Origin: an uncultured archaeon
Lineage (GTDB): Archaea; Asgardarchaeota; Lokiarchaeia; Helarchaeales; HEL-GB-A
Length of the DNA stretch: 38,678 bases
Assembly: GCA_964353755.1 (NCBI GenBank)
Contig: CAYGYC010000002.1
Location: 1-38,678 of the forward strand
Reading direction: 5' to 3'
In this document: positions 1,695-9,527 of the stretch, in pieces
Numbering within the stretch: position 1 is the first letter of the stretch
Layout: the number at the start of each line of letters is the position of its first letter
The notes under the pieces: generated by a model
Databases searched by the model: none
Told to the model about the DNA's origin: nothing
The model's input: only the letters and a program-made list of their open reading frames with translations
Program-made: the position numbers and the translations under genes

Positions 1695-2816
1695 GTGATT
1701 TTACGGGGGAAAAAAATTTGGCTGACGAAAGGCGGATTACTGGACTTATCCAATCAAGGGCTCTCCAATATTTCACCCATCGAAGGGCTGCAAGATCTCA
1801 CAAGTCTTAAATATTTGGTTCTGAACAATAATCGGTTCCTTAATCTTAATTGGCTTAAAGATATAGAAAGGTTACCCAATTTTCGGTTCCTAGCCCTCAA
1901 TAACAATCAAATTACGGCCCTTCAAGGCTTGCAATACCTACCCCGTCTTGAAACCTTGATTTGCACCAATAATAGGATTAAGGATCTCACGGGTTTAGAG
2001 AATTTGCATGCCCTTAAAAATTTGAACCTCTCCCACAATGGGATATATGAAAGTTCAGAAATCGAGAAATTAACAAATCTTGAGGACTTGGATCTCTCTT
2101 ATAATCGCTTACAGGTAATTAAAGGATTGAACTTATTAAAAAAGCTTATTCGATTAGACCTTTCTCATAATGATCCCGCAGAGATCCACGGATTGGAAGG
2201 TTTAAAGGAACTTCAATTTCTAAATCTAGAGTATAACCATATTTTTAAAATTGCGAATCTCGATTCACTTAGAAACCTGAGTAACTTGAATCTGGAAGGT
2301 AATCAGATCAAGAAAATTGAAAGATTAGAACTTCTGACGCGCCTTAAAGACCTCAATCTTAATAATAACCAAATAACCTCAATTGAGGGGTTAGATACTT
2401 TAAAAGAACTCCAATTTTTGCATTTAAAATACAATTCTATTAAAAAAATTGAAGGATTGCGCTTCTTGGATGCCTTAGAATATCTTCAACTCGATAATAA
2501 CCAAATCACTACAGTTAATGGAGGCGAATTTCCTCCCAATCTTCGATATGCGTCAATTAAATCAAATCAAATCCAGGACCTGCACAATTTGCCTTTTGGA
2601 ACCGCATTTCACTTCGAAAGAAATAAAATTACAAGTATGGAAGGGCTTGAAAACCATCTGCGCTATGATAAAGTGTTCCTTTTTGAGAATCCCGTTATGG
2701 CAGAAGTTTTTATGAATTACCCTCACTGGATTACAAGTGGCAAATATTGGAAATATTCAGTTCCCGAAGATGATTTAAAAGAAGAAAAAACAAAAAATGA
2801 TAATGAAATTGCGTAA
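1695..2816 (+). CDS. leucine-rich repeat protein (22-residue SDS22/internalin-class LRRs), no signal peptide
   Basis: About 13-14 consecutive LxxLxLxxNxIxxIxxLxxLxx repeats, e.g. LKNLNLSHNGIYESSEIEKLTN, LEDLDLSYNRLQVIKGLNLLKK, LKDLNLNNNQITSIEGLDTLKE. GTG start lies 32 nt after the Get3-like stop. Confidence 0.9.
   Translation: MILRGKKIWLTKGGLLDLSNQGLSNISPIEGLQDLTSLKYLVLNNNRFLNLNWLKDIERLPNFRFLALNNNQITALQGLQYLPRLETLICTNNRIKDLTGLENLHALKNLNLSHNGIYESSEIEKLTNLEDLDLSYNRLQVIKGLNLLKKLIRLDLSHNDPAEIHGLEGLKELQFLNLEYNHIFKIANLDSLRNLSNLNLEGNQIKKIERLELLTRLKDLNLNNNQITSIEGLDTLKELQFLHLKYNSIKKIEGLRFLDALEYLQLDNNQITTVNGGEFPPNLRYASIKSNQIQDLHNLPFGTAFHFERNKITSMEGLENHLRYDKVFLFENPVMAEVFMNYPHWITSGKYWKYSVPEDDLKEEKTKNDNEIA
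1737..2670 (+). repeat. tandem coding repeats (66-nt / 22-aa LRR periodicity) inside the LRR gene
   Basis: I aligned the repeat units by hand from the translated ORF. The boundaries are approximate. Confidence 0.75.
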
Positions 2817-2829
2817 AAAACAATCCGGA

Positions 2830-2997
2830 TTAAAGTTTGTTTTCTTTTTTTAATTTAAAATAACAAAAATGGCAAATTGGATCCGGCTTTCCATCGATCA
2901 TCCGCTCGATATACATAGAGCCACGTTCCGTAATCTTGTTGCAAATGATGCACTTAACGGTTTCTTGCGCTTTTTTATTTACATATGAGGCGGGCAA
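2830..2997 (-). CDS. candidate small zinc-ribbon protein (55 aa, CxxC-x22-CxxC), below the ORF-track length cutoff
   Basis: My translation of the minus strand is (M)PASYVNKKAQETVKCIICNKITERGSMYIERMIDGKPDPICHFCYFKLKKENKL*. The TTG start is 2 nt after the FGGY-kinase stop, and a GGGAG lies about 10 nt upstream. The region is about 47% GC over 2871-2970 by my count, against very AT-rich flanks, which fits coding sequence. Confidence 0.4.
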   Translation of the reverse strand: MPASYVNKKAQETVKCIICNKITERGSMYIERMIDGKPDPICHFCYFKLKKENKL

Positions 2998-2999
2998 TG

Positions 3000-4457
3000 T
3001 TAAAGATCTCCCGTAATTCTTTTCTTGTTCAACACCTCTAGGACAGCTGGCATAAAAACGCGAATAACTTTCTTGTAAATTTTGGTATTTTCTGGAATGG
3101 GCGATTTGGTAGTCGCAAATCGTACCATCTTTTGTATGGCTGCTTCAAAACTCGCATAATTTTTAAGTCCCACAAATCCTAGTATAGCGGCGCCCAGAGC
3201 GGCGCCATCCTTATTTTCTGCCACGCGAATTGGTTTATTGATAATATCTGCAAATATTTGAGACCATAAATCGCTGTTCATTCCTCCGCCATCGACCCGT
3301 AACTCTGTGGCTTTTTGCCTAGCCAGGCCCTCTAATAAGCCTAGATACACCTGCGCTGATAATGCAGCGCTTTCCAGAATAGCACGAATAAAATGTCCGC
3401 GAGTATGGCCTAACCCTAGAGCCATCAACTGGGCTTTCTTGAAAATGTAGAGCGGGAGGATCAATAATCCTTCACTCCCGGGTGGGACTTTTTGGGCTTC
3501 CGCCATCAAAGAATCATATATATTAATTTTTTTATCCATACATTCCTTAACTTGCGCTTGGGAAAAATTATCACGGAACCAATTCAGGGCAGTGCCTGTA
3601 CCCGGCATAGTACCTTCTAAAACCCATTTATTTTTTATGACATGGGGAAGGCTGAAGATGGGAATGTCCCCGGGCGAGGGAACGGGATGATCAACGACCA
3701 AATCAACAAAAGTACCGGTCCCCGTTGTGGTTTTTGCCTGCCCATTATTAACCACACCCAGCCCCAACGCAGAACATTGTTGATCACCGCCGCCTACTAT
3801 GATCGGTATTCCTTTTTTCAACCCTAATTCCGTAGCCGCAGCTTCCGAGAGTTCTCCAACAATTTCCCCGGGCATGCGGAGTTCAGGCCATAATTCCACT
3901 GGTAATCCATATAATTCGGCTAATTGCTCATCCCATTGATAGGAATCCATATTTAAAATTCCATAAATGGCATTGGAGGGGTCAGTAACTAGTGCCCCAC
4001 AGAGTTTCATGTAACAAAAGGCATCAGGAAAGATGATTTTAGAGGCGTTATTGAATAGGTTTGGATGATTATTTTTAAGCCATAATAACTTTGGAATGGC
4101 TCTCCTTAGCCCGCCTTCTTTTTGAAACTCCTTCATATCTGAAACTTCCCGTTCATCCATCCAGGTCAAAGCGGGATGCAAAATTTCACCGGTTTTGGAT
4201 ATGAAGGTACTGGATGCTCTATGAAATGCGGCCGATATGCCGATTAAATCAGCTGGATTAATTGCTTTACTCACTTTTTTGCATGTATTTTTGATTGCAT
4301 TCCACCATATAGCCGGATCTTGTTCAGATATTCCAGGAGGTTGTCTTTCAAGTTTGTATTCCTCATAAAATTTCACTAGTTCTTTTCCATCAATATCAAA
4401 AACAATACTTCTTGCCCCAGTTGTACCTACATCAAAAACTAGCAACAAATTGCTCAT
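3000..4457 (-). CDS. FGGY-family carbohydrate kinase (glycerol/xylulose-kinase-like)
   Basis: N-terminal actin-fold phosphate-1 motif LLVFDVGTTGARSIVFD and GGGDQQCSALGLG (GDQQ as in glycerol kinases). Length is ~485 aa. A GGTGA Shine-Dalgarno lies 4 nt upstream. Sits directly downstream of the G3P dehydrogenase gene. Confidence 0.85.
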   Translation of the reverse strand: MSNLLLVFDVGTTGARSIVFDIDGKELVKFYEEYKLERQPPGISEQDPAIWWNAIKNTCKKVSKAINPADLIGISAAFHRASSTFISKTGEILHPALTWMDEREVSDMKEFQKEGGLRRAIPKLLWLKNNHPNLFNNASKIIFPDAFCYMKLCGALVTDPSNAIYGILNMDSYQWDEQLAELYGLPVELWPELRMPGEIVGELSEAAATELGLKKGIPIIVGGGDQQCSALGLGVVNNGQAKTTTGTGTFVDLVVDHPVPSPGDIPIFSLPHVIKNKWVLEGTMPGTGTALNWFRDNFSQAQVKECMDKKINIYDSLMAEAQKVPPGSEGLLILPLYIFKKAQLMALGLGHTRGHFIRAILESAALSAQVYLGLLEGLARQKATELRVDGGGMNSDLWSQIFADIINKPIRVAENKDGAALGAAILGFVGLKNYASFEAAIQKMVRFATTKSPIPENTKIYKKVIRVFMPAVLEVLNKKRITGDL

Positions 4458-4476
4458 TATTTCACCTCTAAATTAA

Positions 4477-6252
4477 TTATAACTCGCCTTTAAAGAAAAA
4501 TGAATTTGCTTTAATATAAGAAAGGTAAAAATCTATTTCTGCCTTCTTTCTATTCTCGTTCCACCCCAGAAATGCGCCCATAATCTCGGCGGTGGTTTTT
4601 GCGACTTTACGTTGCCTCGAGGGATGGACTAACCAACAAATTTCGGTGCGTCTGCACAGAACATCATTCAAATGTCTTGGGATTTCATGTTTAATAATAT
4701 AAATAAGTTCTGCCTTTGTCCAGGGGAAGTATTTGGGGGGATATTCAGGATCGTGTATTAACAGTTCCGTTAAAGCATGATCTTTTAACATTTCATCAAT
4801 AATTATCAGCGCCCCTCTCCCAAATTCGATGTAAAGATGGTTCAATATCTCGGGATCTATTTTGCCTTGAGCCGCTTGGTATTGTTTACTCGCTTCAAAT
4901 TCATCGCGTTTAAGACTAATCTTGTACGGAATTTTGGCTATATTTTTGGCTTCAGACACATTATTAGTGCCATTTCTGGCGATATCGACTTTTCTACTCT
5001 TCAATATATATTTACGCATTAAATCTTCAGCCATAACCCTATAAGTCGTATATTTCCCACCAACTAAAGTAAACAGCCCATCTTCTCGCTCAAGAACTAG
5101 ATGTTTTCTACTCACTTCACTCTCTGACTTCCCTGGATCCAGCACTAACGGGCGGACCCCTGCATAGGTGCCTAAAATGTGGGCATCATCCATTTTTGCC
5201 TTAGGAAACAACAATTCTACGGTATTTCGGAGATAATCCACATCTTTTTTAGTAGCAACTGGTTTATCCAAATCTTCATCATAGAAAGTATCTGTTGTTC
5301 CTATTAAAACCCAGTGTTCACGAGGTAATACAAAGAAAAATCGATGGTCATCAATACTACTTATTCCAAAACCGTGATTAATTTTAAAATCATCATATTT
5401 GACCGCAAAATGAATTCCTTTACTGGGTCTTATTATTTTAGAGCTACCCGTATTTCGCAATATGTCATCTGCCCATATTCCCGCACAATTTACGACTACA
5501 GTTCCTCTGATAGTAAATGGTTCATGTTTGGCTTTGGGATTGAATTTATCATTCTCAACTACTTTAACTCCAGCAATCAATCCTGTTTCATCATGTATTA
5601 AATCTATCACTTTCAAATAATTGAGCGCAGTGCATTTACCCGAAGCAACGCTTTCTATAATTGTTTCAACGACAATTCTACCATCGTCCATATTGGTATC
5701 ATAATACAAGCCCACCCCCTGCAATTGATCCGTGTTGAGTTCGGGCTCTAATTCCGCTACTTTTTTCGGGTCGTCGATAATTTCCCACGGTTTATAATTT
5801 TGATTTTTACTACAATCATCATAGGTTTTCAAGGCAACTTTAATCATTTGCATATCATTACTGCTGGGAGGCAAAGCTTTTCCCGTACGAGGATCTGTTC
5901 TTTGACCAAAAACAGGTATAATAAACTGTAAAGGGCGCACATTATGGGGAAGCCCTTCATTTCGTAGCCAATCTCTTTCCCTGGTTGACTCTTCTACCAA
6001 TTTAATTTCAAAGGTTTTAAGATATCTCAACCCCCCATGGAACAACTTGGAAGATCTCGAGGAAGTGCCTTCCGCAAAATCATCCTTCTCAACCAGGGCA
6101 ACATTAAGCCCCCGCAATACGGCATCTCGAGCGACACCAGCTCCCGTTATTCCACCGCCAATGATAATAAGGTCAAATTCAGTCCGCTTCAATTTATTTA
6201 TGATTTCCGCCCTTTCTTTCTCGGAAAAACTGAGGTTCAGTATATCTTCCAT
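4477..6252 (-). CDS. FAD-dependent glycerol-3-phosphate dehydrogenase (GlpD/GlpA/GPD2 type)
   Basis: Dinucleotide fold DLIIIGGGITGAGVARDAVLRGLNVALVEKDDFAEGTSSRSSKLFHGGLRYL, plus GGKYTTYRVMAED and a C-terminal helical domain typical of GlpD/GPD2. Confidence 0.9.
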   Translation of the reverse strand: MEDILNLSFSEKERAEIINKLKRTEFDLIIIGGGITGAGVARDAVLRGLNVALVEKDDFAEGTSSRSSKLFHGGLRYLKTFEIKLVEESTRERDWLRNEGLPHNVRPLQFIIPVFGQRTDPRTGKALPPSSNDMQMIKVALKTYDDCSKNQNYKPWEIIDDPKKVAELEPELNTDQLQGVGLYYDTNMDDGRIVVETIIESVASGKCTALNYLKVIDLIHDETGLIAGVKVVENDKFNPKAKHEPFTIRGTVVVNCAGIWADDILRNTGSSKIIRPSKGIHFAVKYDDFKINHGFGISSIDDHRFFFVLPREHWVLIGTTDTFYDEDLDKPVATKKDVDYLRNTVELLFPKAKMDDAHILGTYAGVRPLVLDPGKSESEVSRKHLVLEREDGLFTLVGGKYTTYRVMAEDLMRKYILKSRKVDIARNGTNNVSEAKNIAKIPYKISLKRDEFEASKQYQAAQGKIDPEILNHLYIEFGRGALIIIDEMLKDHALTELLIHDPEYPPKYFPWTKAELIYIIKHEIPRHLNDVLCRRTEICWLVHPSRQRKVAKTTAEIMGAFLGWNENRKKAEIDFYLSYIKANSFFFKGEL

Positions 6253-6253
6253 T

Positions 6254-6874
6254 TTATTTCAACCCCATTTGGAACAATAATAATCCGATAAGCATCGTTA
6301 AAGGTGCCAAAACTAAGAGTAAAGGGAAAAGATCGGTGAGAACCTTCGTATTTAAAGCATTTCCTACGAGAAAAATTATAATTCCAAAGGTAATATCGAA
6401 GCTATTTATACGGATTTGTCCAGATGATTTCAATCCCACCTTTAAATACAAGATAGGTATGATAAGGGCTGAGGCTGAGCCGAAGGCCACCCACCAAGTT
6501 ACAAGATTCAGGTCATTATATGAAGGCACGATTAAAATTAGACTTGCAAAAACCAACACAGTGATAGTGGGAATGAATTTTAACTTGGGATACACGTATT
6601 TTTCAACGGCAAACATCAAGCCACCTATTCCCAGTACCGCGAAAAAGGATGCTATGACATATATTAATGAATCGGGATCCGTCCCATAAATGGAATTGAC
6701 AATGAGTAAAATTCGACAGAGCATATAAAAAACTGTAAAAAGCGCAATGCTTAAAAAATAAAACTTTCGTTCTACTTCCTTTTTTTGGGCTTTGATTATC
6801 AAATATCCTGTTAAAAATCCTAAATAAACCGTTAAAAATATAAAAAACGCGGTAGAAAGATTCTCATATTGCAT
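6254..6874 (-). CDS. polytopic membrane protein (about 6-7 TM helices), unknown function
   Basis: Strongly hydrophobic 206-aa ORF. Its stop is 1 nt from the G3PDH start. No NPA motifs, so it is not a GlpF-type channel. Confidence 0.7.
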   Translation of the reverse strand: MQYENLSTAFFIFLTVYLGFLTGYLIIKAQKKEVERKFYFLSIALFTVFYMLCRILLIVNSIYGTDPDSLIYVIASFFAVLGIGGLMFAVEKYVYPKLKFIPTITVLVFASLILIVPSYNDLNLVTWWVAFGSASALIIPILYLKVGLKSSGQIRINSFDITFGIIIFLVGNALNTKVLTDLFPLLLVLAPLTMLIGLLLFQMGLK

Positions 6875-6960
6875 TTTAAACCCTTCTTTTAATTGTGGCT
6901 TTTACACGATATTTAATTAATAGTAATGGGAGTTTAAAATTCATTTCGCTTCATTCTGAA

Positions 6961-8091
6961 TTAGACTATTCGATTAACTAATTCAACCAGATCTATTACT
7001 TTTAATTGTCCAAGGTTGGCGGATTTTTTAAAATGATATTTACAGAGCGGACAAGCCGAAATTAAATATTCTGCCCCAGTTTCAAGTGCTTCAGTAATTC
7101 GGTTCTCTCTCACAGCATCAGCAAGTTCTGGAAAGTTTGACCGGACACCACCTCCGGCCCCACAACAGAAGCCTTTCTCCCGCGAATGATCCATTTCTAA
7201 CACGGAGACCCCTTCCATTTTTTGGAGGATTTTTCGTGGGACATCATAAAAATTCATTCCTCGACCGAGATGGCACGGATCGTGATAAGTAACCTTAGAT
7301 TTGAGTTGTTCTCGCGAGATATCACCTAATTTATTATAAATAACTTCACTGATATGCATAACATTAACATTAAAATTAGGTCGATGCTTTGGATAGAAAT
7401 CTTTGATAACTCTATAGCAAGCACTACACGGAGTAATGATTTCTTTAATTGCATGGGTTTGCCATTCTTCAACATTATGATTCATTGCTTCAATTACTGG
7501 ACTTAAAAAGCCAGTGCGAATCGCAGGAGATCCACAACACCATTCGTCTTCCATTATTGTAAATTCAACTTTTAATTTCTGTAACAATTCAATTGAAGCT
7601 CGGGCAATTTCAATTTCGCGATAGGAGCCCATACATCCCAAAAAAAGCACCGAAGAAACATCTTCCTGAGTTCTAATTAAATCTTTAACTGAGTTATATC
7701 GGTTTGCGTGAGTTTCATTAAGTGGATTATGATGTTCGGAGATACTCTTGGCAATTTTTGAATATTGAGAAACATCGATCCCAGATTCTACGATTGAGGC
7801 TCGTGCAAGTTCCATTAATTCGGCTTCATCTACTTTAGGAAGGCAAAAGGAATTACAGAGATTACAAGTCAGACAGGAGAATATGCTTTCCAAAGCTCCT
7901 TGATCATAGGAACGGATTCCCTTTTCATTTAAATTCACATGGAGAGAGCGAATATAGGGGGTCAGGTTCTCTGAGGCTGAGGCAATGACAGTTGGGCAAT
8001 TATCACGGCACATTTTCATGCAAGTACTGCACATTTCCAGTCTAAATCGAATTTGGCGTGGCAGTCCTGTCTTTTGCGTCAATCGAATCAC
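6961..8091 (-). CDS. (Fe-S)-binding CCG-domain protein, GlcF/GlpC/HdrD-like
   Basis: Two ferredoxin-like Cys clusters (CSTCMKMCRDNCP, CLTCNLCNSFC) and two CCG motifs (WCCGSP, FCCGAGGG). The start is 2 nt after the stop of the upstream flavoprotein gene. Confidence 0.85.
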   Translation of the reverse strand: MIRLTQKTGLPRQIRFRLEMCSTCMKMCRDNCPTVIASASENLTPYIRSLHVNLNEKGIRSYDQGALESIFSCLTCNLCNSFCLPKVDEAELMELARASIVESGIDVSQYSKIAKSISEHHNPLNETHANRYNSVKDLIRTQEDVSSVLFLGCMGSYREIEIARASIELLQKLKVEFTIMEDEWCCGSPAIRTGFLSPVIEAMNHNVEEWQTHAIKEIITPCSACYRVIKDFYPKHRPNFNVNVMHISEVIYNKLGDISREQLKSKVTYHDPCHLGRGMNFYDVPRKILQKMEGVSVLEMDHSREKGFCCGAGGGVRSNFPELADAVRENRITEALETGAEYLISACPLCKYHFKKSANLGQLKVIDLVELVNRIV

Positions 8092-8093
8092 CT

Positions 8094-9527
8094 TTAAAGT
8101 CCTAATTTCCCAGGATTCATTATATTATTCGGATCAATTAACTTTTTTATCCCTTTCAATAGGGTAAAAGTACCAGAACCGAGTTCTTGTTCCATATATT
8201 CGCCCCGGAATATCCCGACACCATGATGATGCGATATGCTCCCCCCATTTTCCAGGCAAGTTTTTAACCCGTCGCGCCATGCTTGTTGATATAATAGGGA
8301 GGCTTTTTGCTCCTTTTCTGTATCTTTTTCCAGCAGCACAAAAATCAGGTACATACTCCCCCCTTCTAAATAGAAATGAGACCAATGAGCCATGACATTT
8401 ATCTTTTTGCTTTGAATGGCCTGCTTCATCTTGTTAAATAAATTTTCCAGGTTATCAAAGGTCGTTACTACATCGATGGTATCTGCCAGAACATTCATTT
8501 TAATCCAGTCCGGGTTAGGATAATACATGTTCAATCGATTTTTAAACCAAATTTTCCCGCCTTCGTCACCCATATCCTTTGCGCCTTCATTGAAACAAAT
8601 CTCCGAGCACACCTTCTTCTGATATCCAATAAGATCCTTAGTTTCCTTGTAACCATCGAACGAAAGCGTTAAGTAACTCTGGTCCTTTTCGATCTCTTTA
8701 ATGTGATAGACCATCCGCGCCTCGACGGCTTCATAGAGCCGGATAATCGAGGGTTTTATGCCGAGATTCATTATCTTTCTTACGGCATTAAAACCTGCGG
8801 TTAACGTGGGAAAGAGAAATCCCGCAAATTCTCTAATATCCGGATTTCTTTTGATGCTCAAACAAATATCGGTAATGATTCCGAAGGTCCCTTCTGTCCC
8901 GATAAATAATTCGTTGAAATTTGGGCCAGTTGCTTTACGAGGAACGCGTGAATGATTCGTATGGATAACCTCACCTGAGGGGAGGACCACCTCTAAATCC
9001 AGCACCATATTTTCTATATTACCATACAAGGAAGATAATGCGCCGGCTGATCTGGTAGCTACAAACCCCCCAACAGAACTTGTTGTTAAGGAGCTAGGTA
9101 GATGCCCTAAAGTATAGCCGTGTTTATTTAAAAAGTCCTCCAAATGTTGGCCAATAACCCCTGCTTGACATAAGACGTAATTTGATTCCTTATGAATTTC
9201 TATTCGTCTTAATTTTTTCAAATCAATTGCTAGTCCTCCGGTCAAGGGGACAATGCCGCCATTGACACCTGCCCCCCCTCCGTACGGGATCGCGGGAATT
9301 TTATACCGATTAGCAATTTTCAAAATCTGCGAAATCTGTTCTAGTGAATCAACCCAGACGATGTAATCCGGAAAGGGTTGCTTTAAAATAGACGGTAACC
9401 GGTATTGCATTATTTTCAGCTGAAACGAATCCCGACCATACGCAATTTTATCTGCGTCCTTTGAGGAAATATTTTTTTCGCCAACTATGGATTCTAATGC
9501 TTTATAAACGGTTTCATTCTTTACCAA
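8094..9527 (-). CDS. FAD-linked oxidase (VAO/PCMH fold), GlcD / alkyl-DHAP-synthase-like
   Basis: FAD-binding region PYGGGAGVNGG. Blocks GHLPSSLTTSSVGGFVATRSAGALSSLYGNIENMVLDLEVVLPSGEVI and NGGSISHHHGVGIFRGEYM...IDPNNIMNPGKL match the AGPS/GlcD family as I remember it. Confidence 0.85.
   Translation of the reverse strand: MVKNETVYKALESIVGEKNISSKDADKIAYGRDSFQLKIMQYRLPSILKQPFPDYIVWVDSLEQISQILKIANRYKIPAIPYGGGAGVNGGIVPLTGGLAIDLKKLRRIEIHKESNYVLCQAGVIGQHLEDFLNKHGYTLGHLPSSLTTSSVGGFVATRSAGALSSLYGNIENMVLDLEVVLPSGEVIHTNHSRVPRKATGPNFNELFIGTEGTFGIITDICLSIKRNPDIREFAGFLFPTLTAGFNAVRKIMNLGIKPSIIRLYEAVEARMVYHIKEIEKDQSYLTLSFDGYKETKDLIGYQKKVCSEICFNEGAKDMGDEGGKIWFKNRLNMYYPNPDWIKMNVLADTIDVVTTFDNLENLFNKMKQAIQSKKINVMAHWSHFYLEGGSMYLIFVLLEKDTEKEQKASLLYQQAWRDGLKTCLENGGSISHHHGVGIFRGEYMEQELGSGTFTLLKGIKKLIDPNNIMNPGKLGL

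Follow-up and report, generated by a model that had tools for sequence, protein, structure and literature searches.

A widespread AGPS-like flavoprotein module beside glycerol-phosphate genes in a Helarchaeota-type Asgard archaeon

In Pseudomonas aeruginosa, one operon encodes a flavin adenine dinucleotide (FAD) oxidoreductase (PA3026), a GlpD homologue (PA3025), an FGGY kinase (PA3024) and a YegS lipid kinase (PA3023) (PMC8151288). The operon is up-regulated more than 100-fold by GliR (PA3027), with a phospholipase co-induced (Kotecka et al. 2021, PMC8151288). Deletion of PA3026-PA3024 produced no phenotype and left growth on glycerol unimpaired, and a path to alkylglycerone phosphate was merely suggested by the authors, from database annotation (PMC8151288). 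Here we describe a related set of genes in a stretch of 38,678 nucleotides from an uncultured Asgard archaeon (assembly GCA_964353755.1, contig CAYGYC010000002.1, positions 1 to 38,678; hereafter the window), where six co-directional open reading frames (ORFs) occupy positions 2830-9527 of the minus strand. They include a flavoprotein resembling alkyl-dihydroxyacetone phosphate synthase (AGPS), an iron-sulfur protein of the HdrD type, a GlpD-type dehydrogenase and an FGGY-family kinase. We conclude that a prokaryotic module of wide distribution and unsolved biochemistry is represented here in its Helarchaeota version. On balance, we favour a reading in which the AGPS-like and HdrD-like proteins form a flavin/iron-sulfur dehydrogenase for a small phosphorylated glycerol-type compound, supplied by the atypical kinase, beside the GlpD-type dehydrogenase. 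The flavoprotein is most likely not an ether-lipid synthase.

The flavoprotein gene (P0001; 8094-9527, minus strand; 477 aa, TTG start) encodes a protein of the VAO/PCMH fold with FAD_binding_4 and FAD-oxidase_C domains (Pfam), which it shares with AGPS (EC 2.5.1.26) together with the catalytic Arg, Tyr and His-His-His (HHH) residues. It differs from AGPS in lacking the N-terminal domain found only there, in having no equivalent of the Dictyostelium residue R447, in having an iron-sulfur partner and in belonging to a separate clade. The same fold is found in GlcDEF, mLDHD (8jde), LctD (7qh2) and YdiJ, and a flavoprotein coupled to a GlcF-like Fer4/CCG protein, with fused forms, occurs on both sides of the comparison; however, the window flavoprotein does not keep the metal triad of the GlcD/D-lactate dehydrogenase (LDHD) group and lies outside the GlcD-type clade. 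Its partner (P0002; 6961-8091, minus strand; 376 aa; Fer4_8/Fer4_17 and two CCG domains in Pfam) is an iron-sulfur subunit of the HdrD/GlpC/GlcF type, with two four-Cys ferredoxin motifs and two CCG domains, as in HdrD, GlpC and the C-terminal half of TfrB. It differs from this group in that it carries no flavin or fumarate-reductase part and is not accompanied by a haem-ligand membrane anchor.

The P. aeruginosa operon is the sole studied example of the module that we found in the literature. PA3026-PA3024 represent the same trio of AGPS-like protein, GlpD homologue and non-GlpK FGGY kinase as the window, and the same trio is present in a P. paraeruginosa locus (L096) that we retrieved with a primer from PMC8151288. 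Over 461 residues the PA3026 orthologue and the window flavoprotein share 29% identity; the kinases share 26%. PA3026 differs in that it falls into a long-form subclade that includes true AGPS, has HQH in place of the HHH loop and keeps the R447-type Arg; its operon has no reported CCG partner or 7-TM (seven-transmembrane) protein, whereas a YegS lipid kinase is present (PMC8151288). Since deletion of the operon leaves growth on glycerol unimpaired, the module is not one of plain glycerol catabolism. Literature pairing AGPS with glpD, FGGY or Asgard yielded nothing on function, with only incidental mentions of Rv2251.

The evidence for a two-subunit enzyme comes from the iron-sulfur protein and the constancy of its pairing. 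Its gene starts 2 nt past the flavoprotein stop codon and encodes no hydrophobic segments. The ferredoxin motifs comprise Cys 21, 24, 28, 32 and Cys 73, 76, 79, 83, and the CCG domains hold five Cys each (153, 185, 186, 222, 225 and 273, 309, 310, 347, 350), so that all 18 of the 18 Cys expected for two [4Fe-4S] and two CCG sites are present. The best profile match is to positions 133-486 of TfrB, the HdrD-like part, at 235 bits, which is below all equivalog cut-offs; the NCBIfam GlpC models score 99 and 66 bits. An orthologue of the flavoprotein was detected at E <= 1e-80 in 38 of 81 sampled genomes of the phylum. Of 29 Asgard loci, 28 have a CCG gene adjoining the orthologue in the same orientation, directly downstream of it in 24, and directly downstream CCG genes are also found in loci from Chloroflexota, Bacillota and Thermoplasmatales. 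Moreover, one protein (P0181) is a single-chain fusion of AGPS-like, Fer4_8 and CCG domains. Because the CCG gene is adjacent in nearly every Asgard locus and a fusion exists, we conclude that the flavoprotein and the iron-sulfur protein are a conserved pair. Four Asgard loci of family f19 (L105, L108, L109 and L111) have a distant CCG gene, 21-25% identical to P0002, upstream on the same strand, and their flanks are too short to include a downstream partner.

The arrangement itself is real and not an accident of assembly. The source is a Helarchaeota-type Asgard metagenome-assembled genome (MAG) that comprises 550 contigs and 4.7 Mb, with a completeness of 88% and a contamination of 6.3%. Hel_GB_A (L009) has all six genes in identical order, with tblastn identities of 56-83% for five of them and 72% for the zinc-ribbon ORF; a wetland-metagenome contig of 10.3 kb spans window positions 2600-8133, and a contig of a separate metagenome study bridges the junction between the CCG and flavoprotein genes. 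It is this agreement between the Hel_GB_A gene order and contigs of two independent metagenome studies that establishes the cluster. The six genes, coordinates and set of spacers listed in the initial annotation were all reproduced from the ORF layout (2, 86, 1, 19 and 2 nt in gene order), and every motif that it quoted (GHLPSS, SSVGGFVATRSAG, YGNIENMV, NGGSISHHHGVG, DPNNI and GDQQ) is present in the translations.

We examined the neighbours within 8 kb of the AGPS-like gene in 85 prokaryotic loci from many phyla. A GlpD-type gene is found in 36 of these loci and an FGGY kinase gene in 29; both are present in 14, and one or the other in 51. Linkage of GlpD-type and FGGY genes to the AGPS-like gene is therefore far above chance. 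The order GlpD - AGPS-like - FGGY is recurrent, and two proteobacterial MAGs have a GlpD-type gene that runs into the start of the AGPS-like gene. Other neighbours in bacterial loci are LacI or DeoR regulators, ABC transporters and a DeoC/LacD aldolase. Six loci contain a YegS/DagK lipid kinase and five contain Pyr_redox_2 and DUF1667 genes, which are partners of anaerobic glycerol 3-phosphate (G3P) dehydrogenases in Firmicutes. In P0228 the AGPS-like domain is joined in one chain to a PfkB kinase, and in P0269 to a Cof-type HAD phosphatase. Three proteins of ~950 aa (P0127, P0128 and P0132) have FAD_binding_4 matches in two stretches, suggesting a tandem form.

The two enzymes encoded beside the pair both score below equivalog level. 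The dehydrogenase (P0004; 4477-6252, minus strand; 591 aa; DAO and DAO_C in Pfam) belongs to the GlpD/GlpO family, with 3da1 (260 bits), GlpO (238 bits) and E. coli GlpD (134 bits) as its best relatives in the PDB; it scores 252.7 bits against PRK12266, for which the cut-off is 360, and is below the NCBIfam equivalog cut-offs. The kinase (P0005; 3000-4457, minus strand; 485 aa; FGGY_N and FGGY_C in Pfam) had been described as an FGGY kinase with a GlpK-like GDQQ motif. The motif is there, but the protein is not an orthodox GlpK, as it reaches 168 bits against the GlpK model TIGR01311 (cut-off 590), compared with 246 bits for XylB and 243 bits for autoinducer-2 (AI-2) kinase among NCBIfam models, and its nearest solved relative is LsrK (170 bits; Thermococcus glycerol kinase, 133 bits). 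A better GlpK-like gene is located elsewhere in the genome (contig C7, 358 bits).

The claim in the initial annotation that the flavoprotein is nearer to AGPS than to GlcD holds by phmmer ranking against the PDB: the best matches are Dictyostelium AGPS (2uuu, 203 bits) and guinea-pig AGPS (4bby, 173 bits), followed by mouse LDHD (141 bits), LctD (115 bits) and glycolate oxidase (93 bits). Nevertheless, the identity to AGPS is ~25%, and a true bacterial AGPS from Sorangium sp. So ce513 (P0276; L098:1438-3399:-) scores 536 bits against 4bby over residues 83-656, which places the 173-203 bits of the window flavoprotein at the level of a paralogue. The same Sorangium genome encodes, in addition to the true AGPS, a separate AGPS-like paralogue (L063:7953-10007:+, 180 bits); with just 191 bits to 2uuu, it was dropped as a true-AGPS reference. 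Among NCBIfam profiles the best match of the window flavoprotein is GlcD (TIGR00387) at 203.6 bits, with a cut-off of 567.9, and PRK11230 gives 102.5 bits, with a cut-off of 897. In the structural model (predicted local distance difference test score of 93), mammalian AGPS is the top Foldseek match, with a template modelling (TM) score of 0.90-0.91 as against 0.83 for LDHD. AGPS chains also give the lowest root-mean-square deviation (2.0-2.1 A) and the longest alignment (462-464 residues), while VIA-align yields Z-scores of 42.0 for AGPS and 43.0 for mLDHD. As these Z-scores tie, fold comparison alone cannot separate the two. In its own assembly the flavoprotein has 26 tblastn matches, corresponding to ~22 separate FAD-linked oxidase ORFs of the VAO/GlcD type, a large family expansion.

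The active site provides a finer distinction. R263 aligns with the catalytic Arg of AGPS (Arg419 in guinea pig, R352 in Dictyostelium) and is invariant in 62 relatives and in the true AGPS rows. Y393, within GGSMY, is invariant in the family alignments and aligns with the AGPS Tyr (Tyr578/Y508; CLYFIF in Dictyostelium) that serves as the catalytic base (PMC3509576). H433-H434-H435 (SHHHGVG) match the HHH loop of AGPS (His615-617), for which some relatives have HQH. The second catalytic Arg (Dictyostelium R447, in a Y-I-R-D motif), which mutagenesis has shown to matter for AGPS catalysis (PMC3509576), is absent: the column is occupied by N338 (YYPNP), and this is so across the whole Asgard clade, while the R447-type Arg is kept in true AGPS and in the long-form bacterial subclade.

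Only ~50 residues precede the FAD domain, and the model aligns to residues 158-658 of guinea-pig AGPS and 91-586 of Dictyostelium AGPS. The gating helix of 4bby, which we take to lie before residue 158, is thus in the N-terminal part that has no counterpart in the model. The extra gating domain is a feature of AGPS only, where it gates the fatty-chain channel (PMC3509576). The initial annotation had named a lack of AGPS substrate-tunnel residues as evidence against an AGPS role; the domain features of AGPS are indeed lacking, and those of the tunnel are probably lacking as well.

The metal site of GlcD and LDHD (GH.GDGN.H ... GEHG), whose ligands we take to be His, His and Glu as in mLDHD, is not retained either. 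H384 is kept, but a Tyr (Y393) stands for the second His and a His (H434) for the Glu; the GlcD-type rows L090 and own_L005 have E-H at the last two metal-site columns. On its sequence, therefore, the flavoprotein is AGPS-like and not GlcD-like, yet it is not an AGPS orthologue. Prokaryotic AGPS-like proteins also share a conserved W-x3-R pair (W327/R331). The corresponding positions are Gly/Thr in true AGPS, and a Trp accompanied by Arg, Lys or His was seen in three of four GlcD-type paralogues. The W-x3-R pair may mark the switch from a polar to a lipid substrate.

Phylogenetic analysis (IQ-TREE, 75 rows) is in line with this assignment. True AGPS was represented in the tree by myxobacterial proteins only, at the level of 536 bits to 4bby, which stood in for eukaryotic AGPS; the best 120 relatives of Sorangium AGPS are all at least 63% identical and come from sources with bacterial names, mostly myxobacterial. 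The AGPS-like superclade is split from the GlcD-type paralogues at 99% in the SH-like approximate likelihood ratio test (SH-aLRT). The initial annotation had considered that the flavoprotein might nest inside D-lactate/glycolate dehydrogenase clades; it lies outside the GlcD-type paralogues, in an Asgard clade (Helarchaeota, Njord/Atabey and Jord) that forms a polytomy beside a bacterial clade, several members of which have a CCG partner. True AGPS is nested (99% SH-aLRT) in the long-form bacterial subclade with PA3026 and forms from Streptomyces and Clostridia/Myxococcales. Forcing the Asgard clade and true AGPS into one clade costs 45.3 log-likelihood units (approximately unbiased (AU) test, p = 0.019, for a group defined after the tree was seen). 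Because true AGPS nests inside a long-form clade linked to GlpD-type and FGGY genes, we suggest that AGPS chemistry arose within the AGPS-like family; and because that subclade is bacterial, an Asgard origin of eukaryotic AGPS is not supported.

Based on these observations, we propose the following scheme. The FGGY kinase would phosphorylate a glycerol-like or small polyol substrate, and the GlpD-type and AGPS-like enzymes would each oxidise a phosphorylated C3-type intermediate. The Arg/Tyr/His pocket of the AGPS type is presumably made for a phosphate ester resembling dihydroxyacetone phosphate (DHAP). The AGPS-like protein and the HdrD/GlpC-like protein encoded downstream of it would assemble into a two-subunit flavin/iron-sulfur dehydrogenase, in which the two [4Fe-4S] clusters and the CCG clusters may carry electrons from FAD to an acceptor that is either in the membrane or of the thiol/disulfide type. 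The genome contains four McrA-like (MCR_alpha) matches (C7:73-456, C383:1927-2304, C138:3187-3564 and C154:8856-9248), and Helarchaeota carry several alkyl-coenzyme M reductases. The four McrA-like genes make coenzyme M/coenzyme B thiol chemistry plausible.

Several points weigh against a dehydrogenase. The term rests on the iron-sulfur partner and the fusions, and measured activity in the family is limited to true AGPS, which works with oxidised FAD and no net redox change and whose catalytic Arg, Tyr and HHH the flavoprotein retains. Many bacterial family members have no CCG partner, so that electron transfer to an iron-sulfur protein is not universal. As to the acceptor, the 7-TM protein lacks a His that could bind haem, and a search of the 88%-complete genome for a menaquinone gene of the MqnA type gave no match, which does not establish its absence. 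In addition, the 86-nt spacer downstream of the iron-sulfur gene may part the cluster into two transcription units.

The retained catalytic residues are also the starting point for another explanation, according to which the flavoprotein carries out redox-neutral lipid chemistry of the AGPS type and the iron-sulfur subunit merely keeps the flavin oxidised. The kinase and the GlpD-type enzyme would then make alkyl- or acyl-DHAP, whose C1 substituent would be exchanged or released via a flavin N5 adduct, so that ether lipids are made or glycerol ethers are cleaved without O2. Conservation of the residues equivalent to Arg419, Tyr578 and HHH, the closest structural superposition on AGPS, the nesting of true AGPS within a clade linked to GlpD-type and FGGY genes, and the lipid kinases in six loci and the phospholipase co-induced with the P. 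aeruginosa operon (PMC8151288) all speak for it. We nevertheless consider it unlikely. Nothing in the model corresponds to the part of AGPS that precedes residue 158, the R447 equivalent is missing in the whole Asgard clade, and the iron-sulfur partner is near-constant and sometimes fused. The presence of FGGY kinases, LacI/DeoR regulators, sugar-type ABC transporters and an aldolase suggests that the substrates are soluble. Finally, the cluster contains no FAR or GNPAT gene, and a 2025 survey reported no evidence for a plasmalogen pathway in Archaea (10.1101/2025.10.10.681575).

An ether-lipid (AGPS) role, which the initial annotation had raised, is accordingly disfavoured by the missing N-terminal domain and catalytic Arg, by the position outside the true AGPS clade and by an electron-transfer partner that a redox-neutral AGPS would not be expected to keep. 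The genome background points the same way. Glycerol 1-phosphate (G1P) dehydrogenase, for which a genome search had been proposed, is encoded at equivalog level (NF002022, 473 bits, cut-off 413), and geranylgeranylglyceryl phosphate (GGGP) synthase (TIGR01769, 256 bits, cut-off 162) is encoded on the same contig of 38.7% GC, as in a normal G1P-based lipid pathway. With both enzymes at hand, and no FAR or DHAP acyltransferase (GNPAT) in the cluster or in the flanking ORFs scanned with Pfam, the suggested bearing of the cluster on the archaeal/bacterial lipid divide finds no support. A GpsA C-domain was not found in the 88%-complete genome, a result that does not establish its absence. PlsC-type acyltransferase domains occur elsewhere in the genome. 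These include a 731-aa ORF with two such domains (C452:654-1940), and a 370-aa protein of the NAD_binding_4 reductase type is encoded at C16:18623-19309; neither is linked to the cluster.

It should be noted that annotation pipelines name these proteins 'alkyldihydroxyacetonephosphate synthase' (JGI names). The label is unjustified for the Asgard clade and risks being misread as evidence that Asgard archaea make ether lipids in the manner of bacteria or eukaryotes.

We also entertain, as a rather unlikely idea, that the kinase, the GlpD-type enzyme and the AGPS-like/iron-sulfur pair constitute an O2-independent route acting on glycerol ether bonds, which it would form or, more likely, cleave. 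In equally speculative terms, phosphorylation of a glyceryl ether would be followed by its oxidation to a ketone of the alkyl-DHAP type, in which the C1 position would then undergo cleavage or exchange on the flavin. If true, eukaryotic AGPS would later have been recruited from this prokaryotic chemistry, which would also let Asgard archaea and bacteria of sediments use ether lipids or other glyceryl ethers. Whichever the substrate, the module is among the more widespread orphan enzyme sets of glycerol-phosphate metabolism, with orthologues in many bacterial phyla. P. aeruginosa offers a tractable model, and solving the substrate of the module would fill this gap and explain the evolution of AGPS chemistry.

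The conservative interpretation of the initial annotation, a 2-hydroxyacid dehydrogenase located beside glycerol genes, fares worse. In this explanation the flavoprotein and its partner would be an ordinary D-lactate/glycolate-type dehydrogenase (GlcD plus GlcF-like), merely adjacent to an independent glycerol kinase and G3P dehydrogenase. That TIGR00387 is the best NCBIfam match, that the CCG partner resembles GlcF as well as GlpC, that mLDHD ties with AGPS in VIA-align and that a pair of the W327/R331 type is found in three of four GlcD-type paralogues and replaced by Gly/Thr in true AGPS would all be compatible with it. However, the TIGR00387 score is far under the cut-off, just one of the three LDHD/GlcD metal ligands is kept and the AGPS-like superclade stands apart from the GlcD-type paralogues. 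Chance adjacency is also difficult to reconcile with GlpD/FGGY linkage that recurs in bacteria and archaea, or with a kinase that is not GlpK. We regard this interpretation as very unlikely.

Equally improbable, in our view, is that the AGPS-like and CCG proteins serve the GlpD-type enzyme as accessory subunits resembling GlpB and GlpC and form with it, with the 7-TM protein as anchor, one membrane-bound anaerobic G3P dehydrogenase: all genes are co-directional, GlpC is itself a CCG protein whose models match P0002, and some bacteria have overlapping GlpD-type and AGPS-like genes, but AGPS-like/CCG pairs exist without a GlpD-type gene nearby (L014, L015, L017, L018 and L023), four Asgard loci have the second, more distant CCG gene upstream, and the AGPS-like protein retains a complete active site of the substrate type.

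The 7-TM protein (6254-6874, minus strand; 206 aa) has seven hydrophobic segments in a hydropathy scan, and its stop codon is 1 nt ahead of the GlpD-type start. It matched no family in Pfam and NCBIfam scans and its relatives in the ESM Atlas are unnamed Asgard clusters only; the Hel_GB_A protein is 56% identical. It contains no His, which excludes the usual mode of haem b ligation. It is probably a membrane anchor or a small-solute permease. The A/T-rich spacer of 86 nt (6875-6960, minus strand) lies between the iron-sulfur and 7-TM genes. It may contain an internal archaeal promoter, in which case the flavoprotein and iron-sulfur genes would form one unit and the genes of the membrane protein, GlpD-type enzyme, kinase and zinc ribbon another. 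A scan of the window for sigma-70 promoters and terminators gave hits at the level of shuffled sequence, with a bacterial consensus that is inapplicable to an archaeon. The last gene of the cluster (2830-2997, minus strand) begins 2 nt past the kinase stop and encodes a 55-aa zinc ribbon (CxxC...CxxC).

A further trio in the assembly, on contig C164 (L095:1-7500; L002), was considered as a paralogous cluster of the archaeon, rejected as a probable bacterial contaminant and given no weight as evidence on the organism, with a GC content of 58.8% versus 37.5% in the window. It encodes a GlpD-type protein (565 aa), an AGPS-like protein (562 aa), an FGGY kinase (525 aa) and a UgpB-like binding protein, in that order, and its flavoprotein shares 61% identity with a flavoprotein from a Myxococcales MAG.

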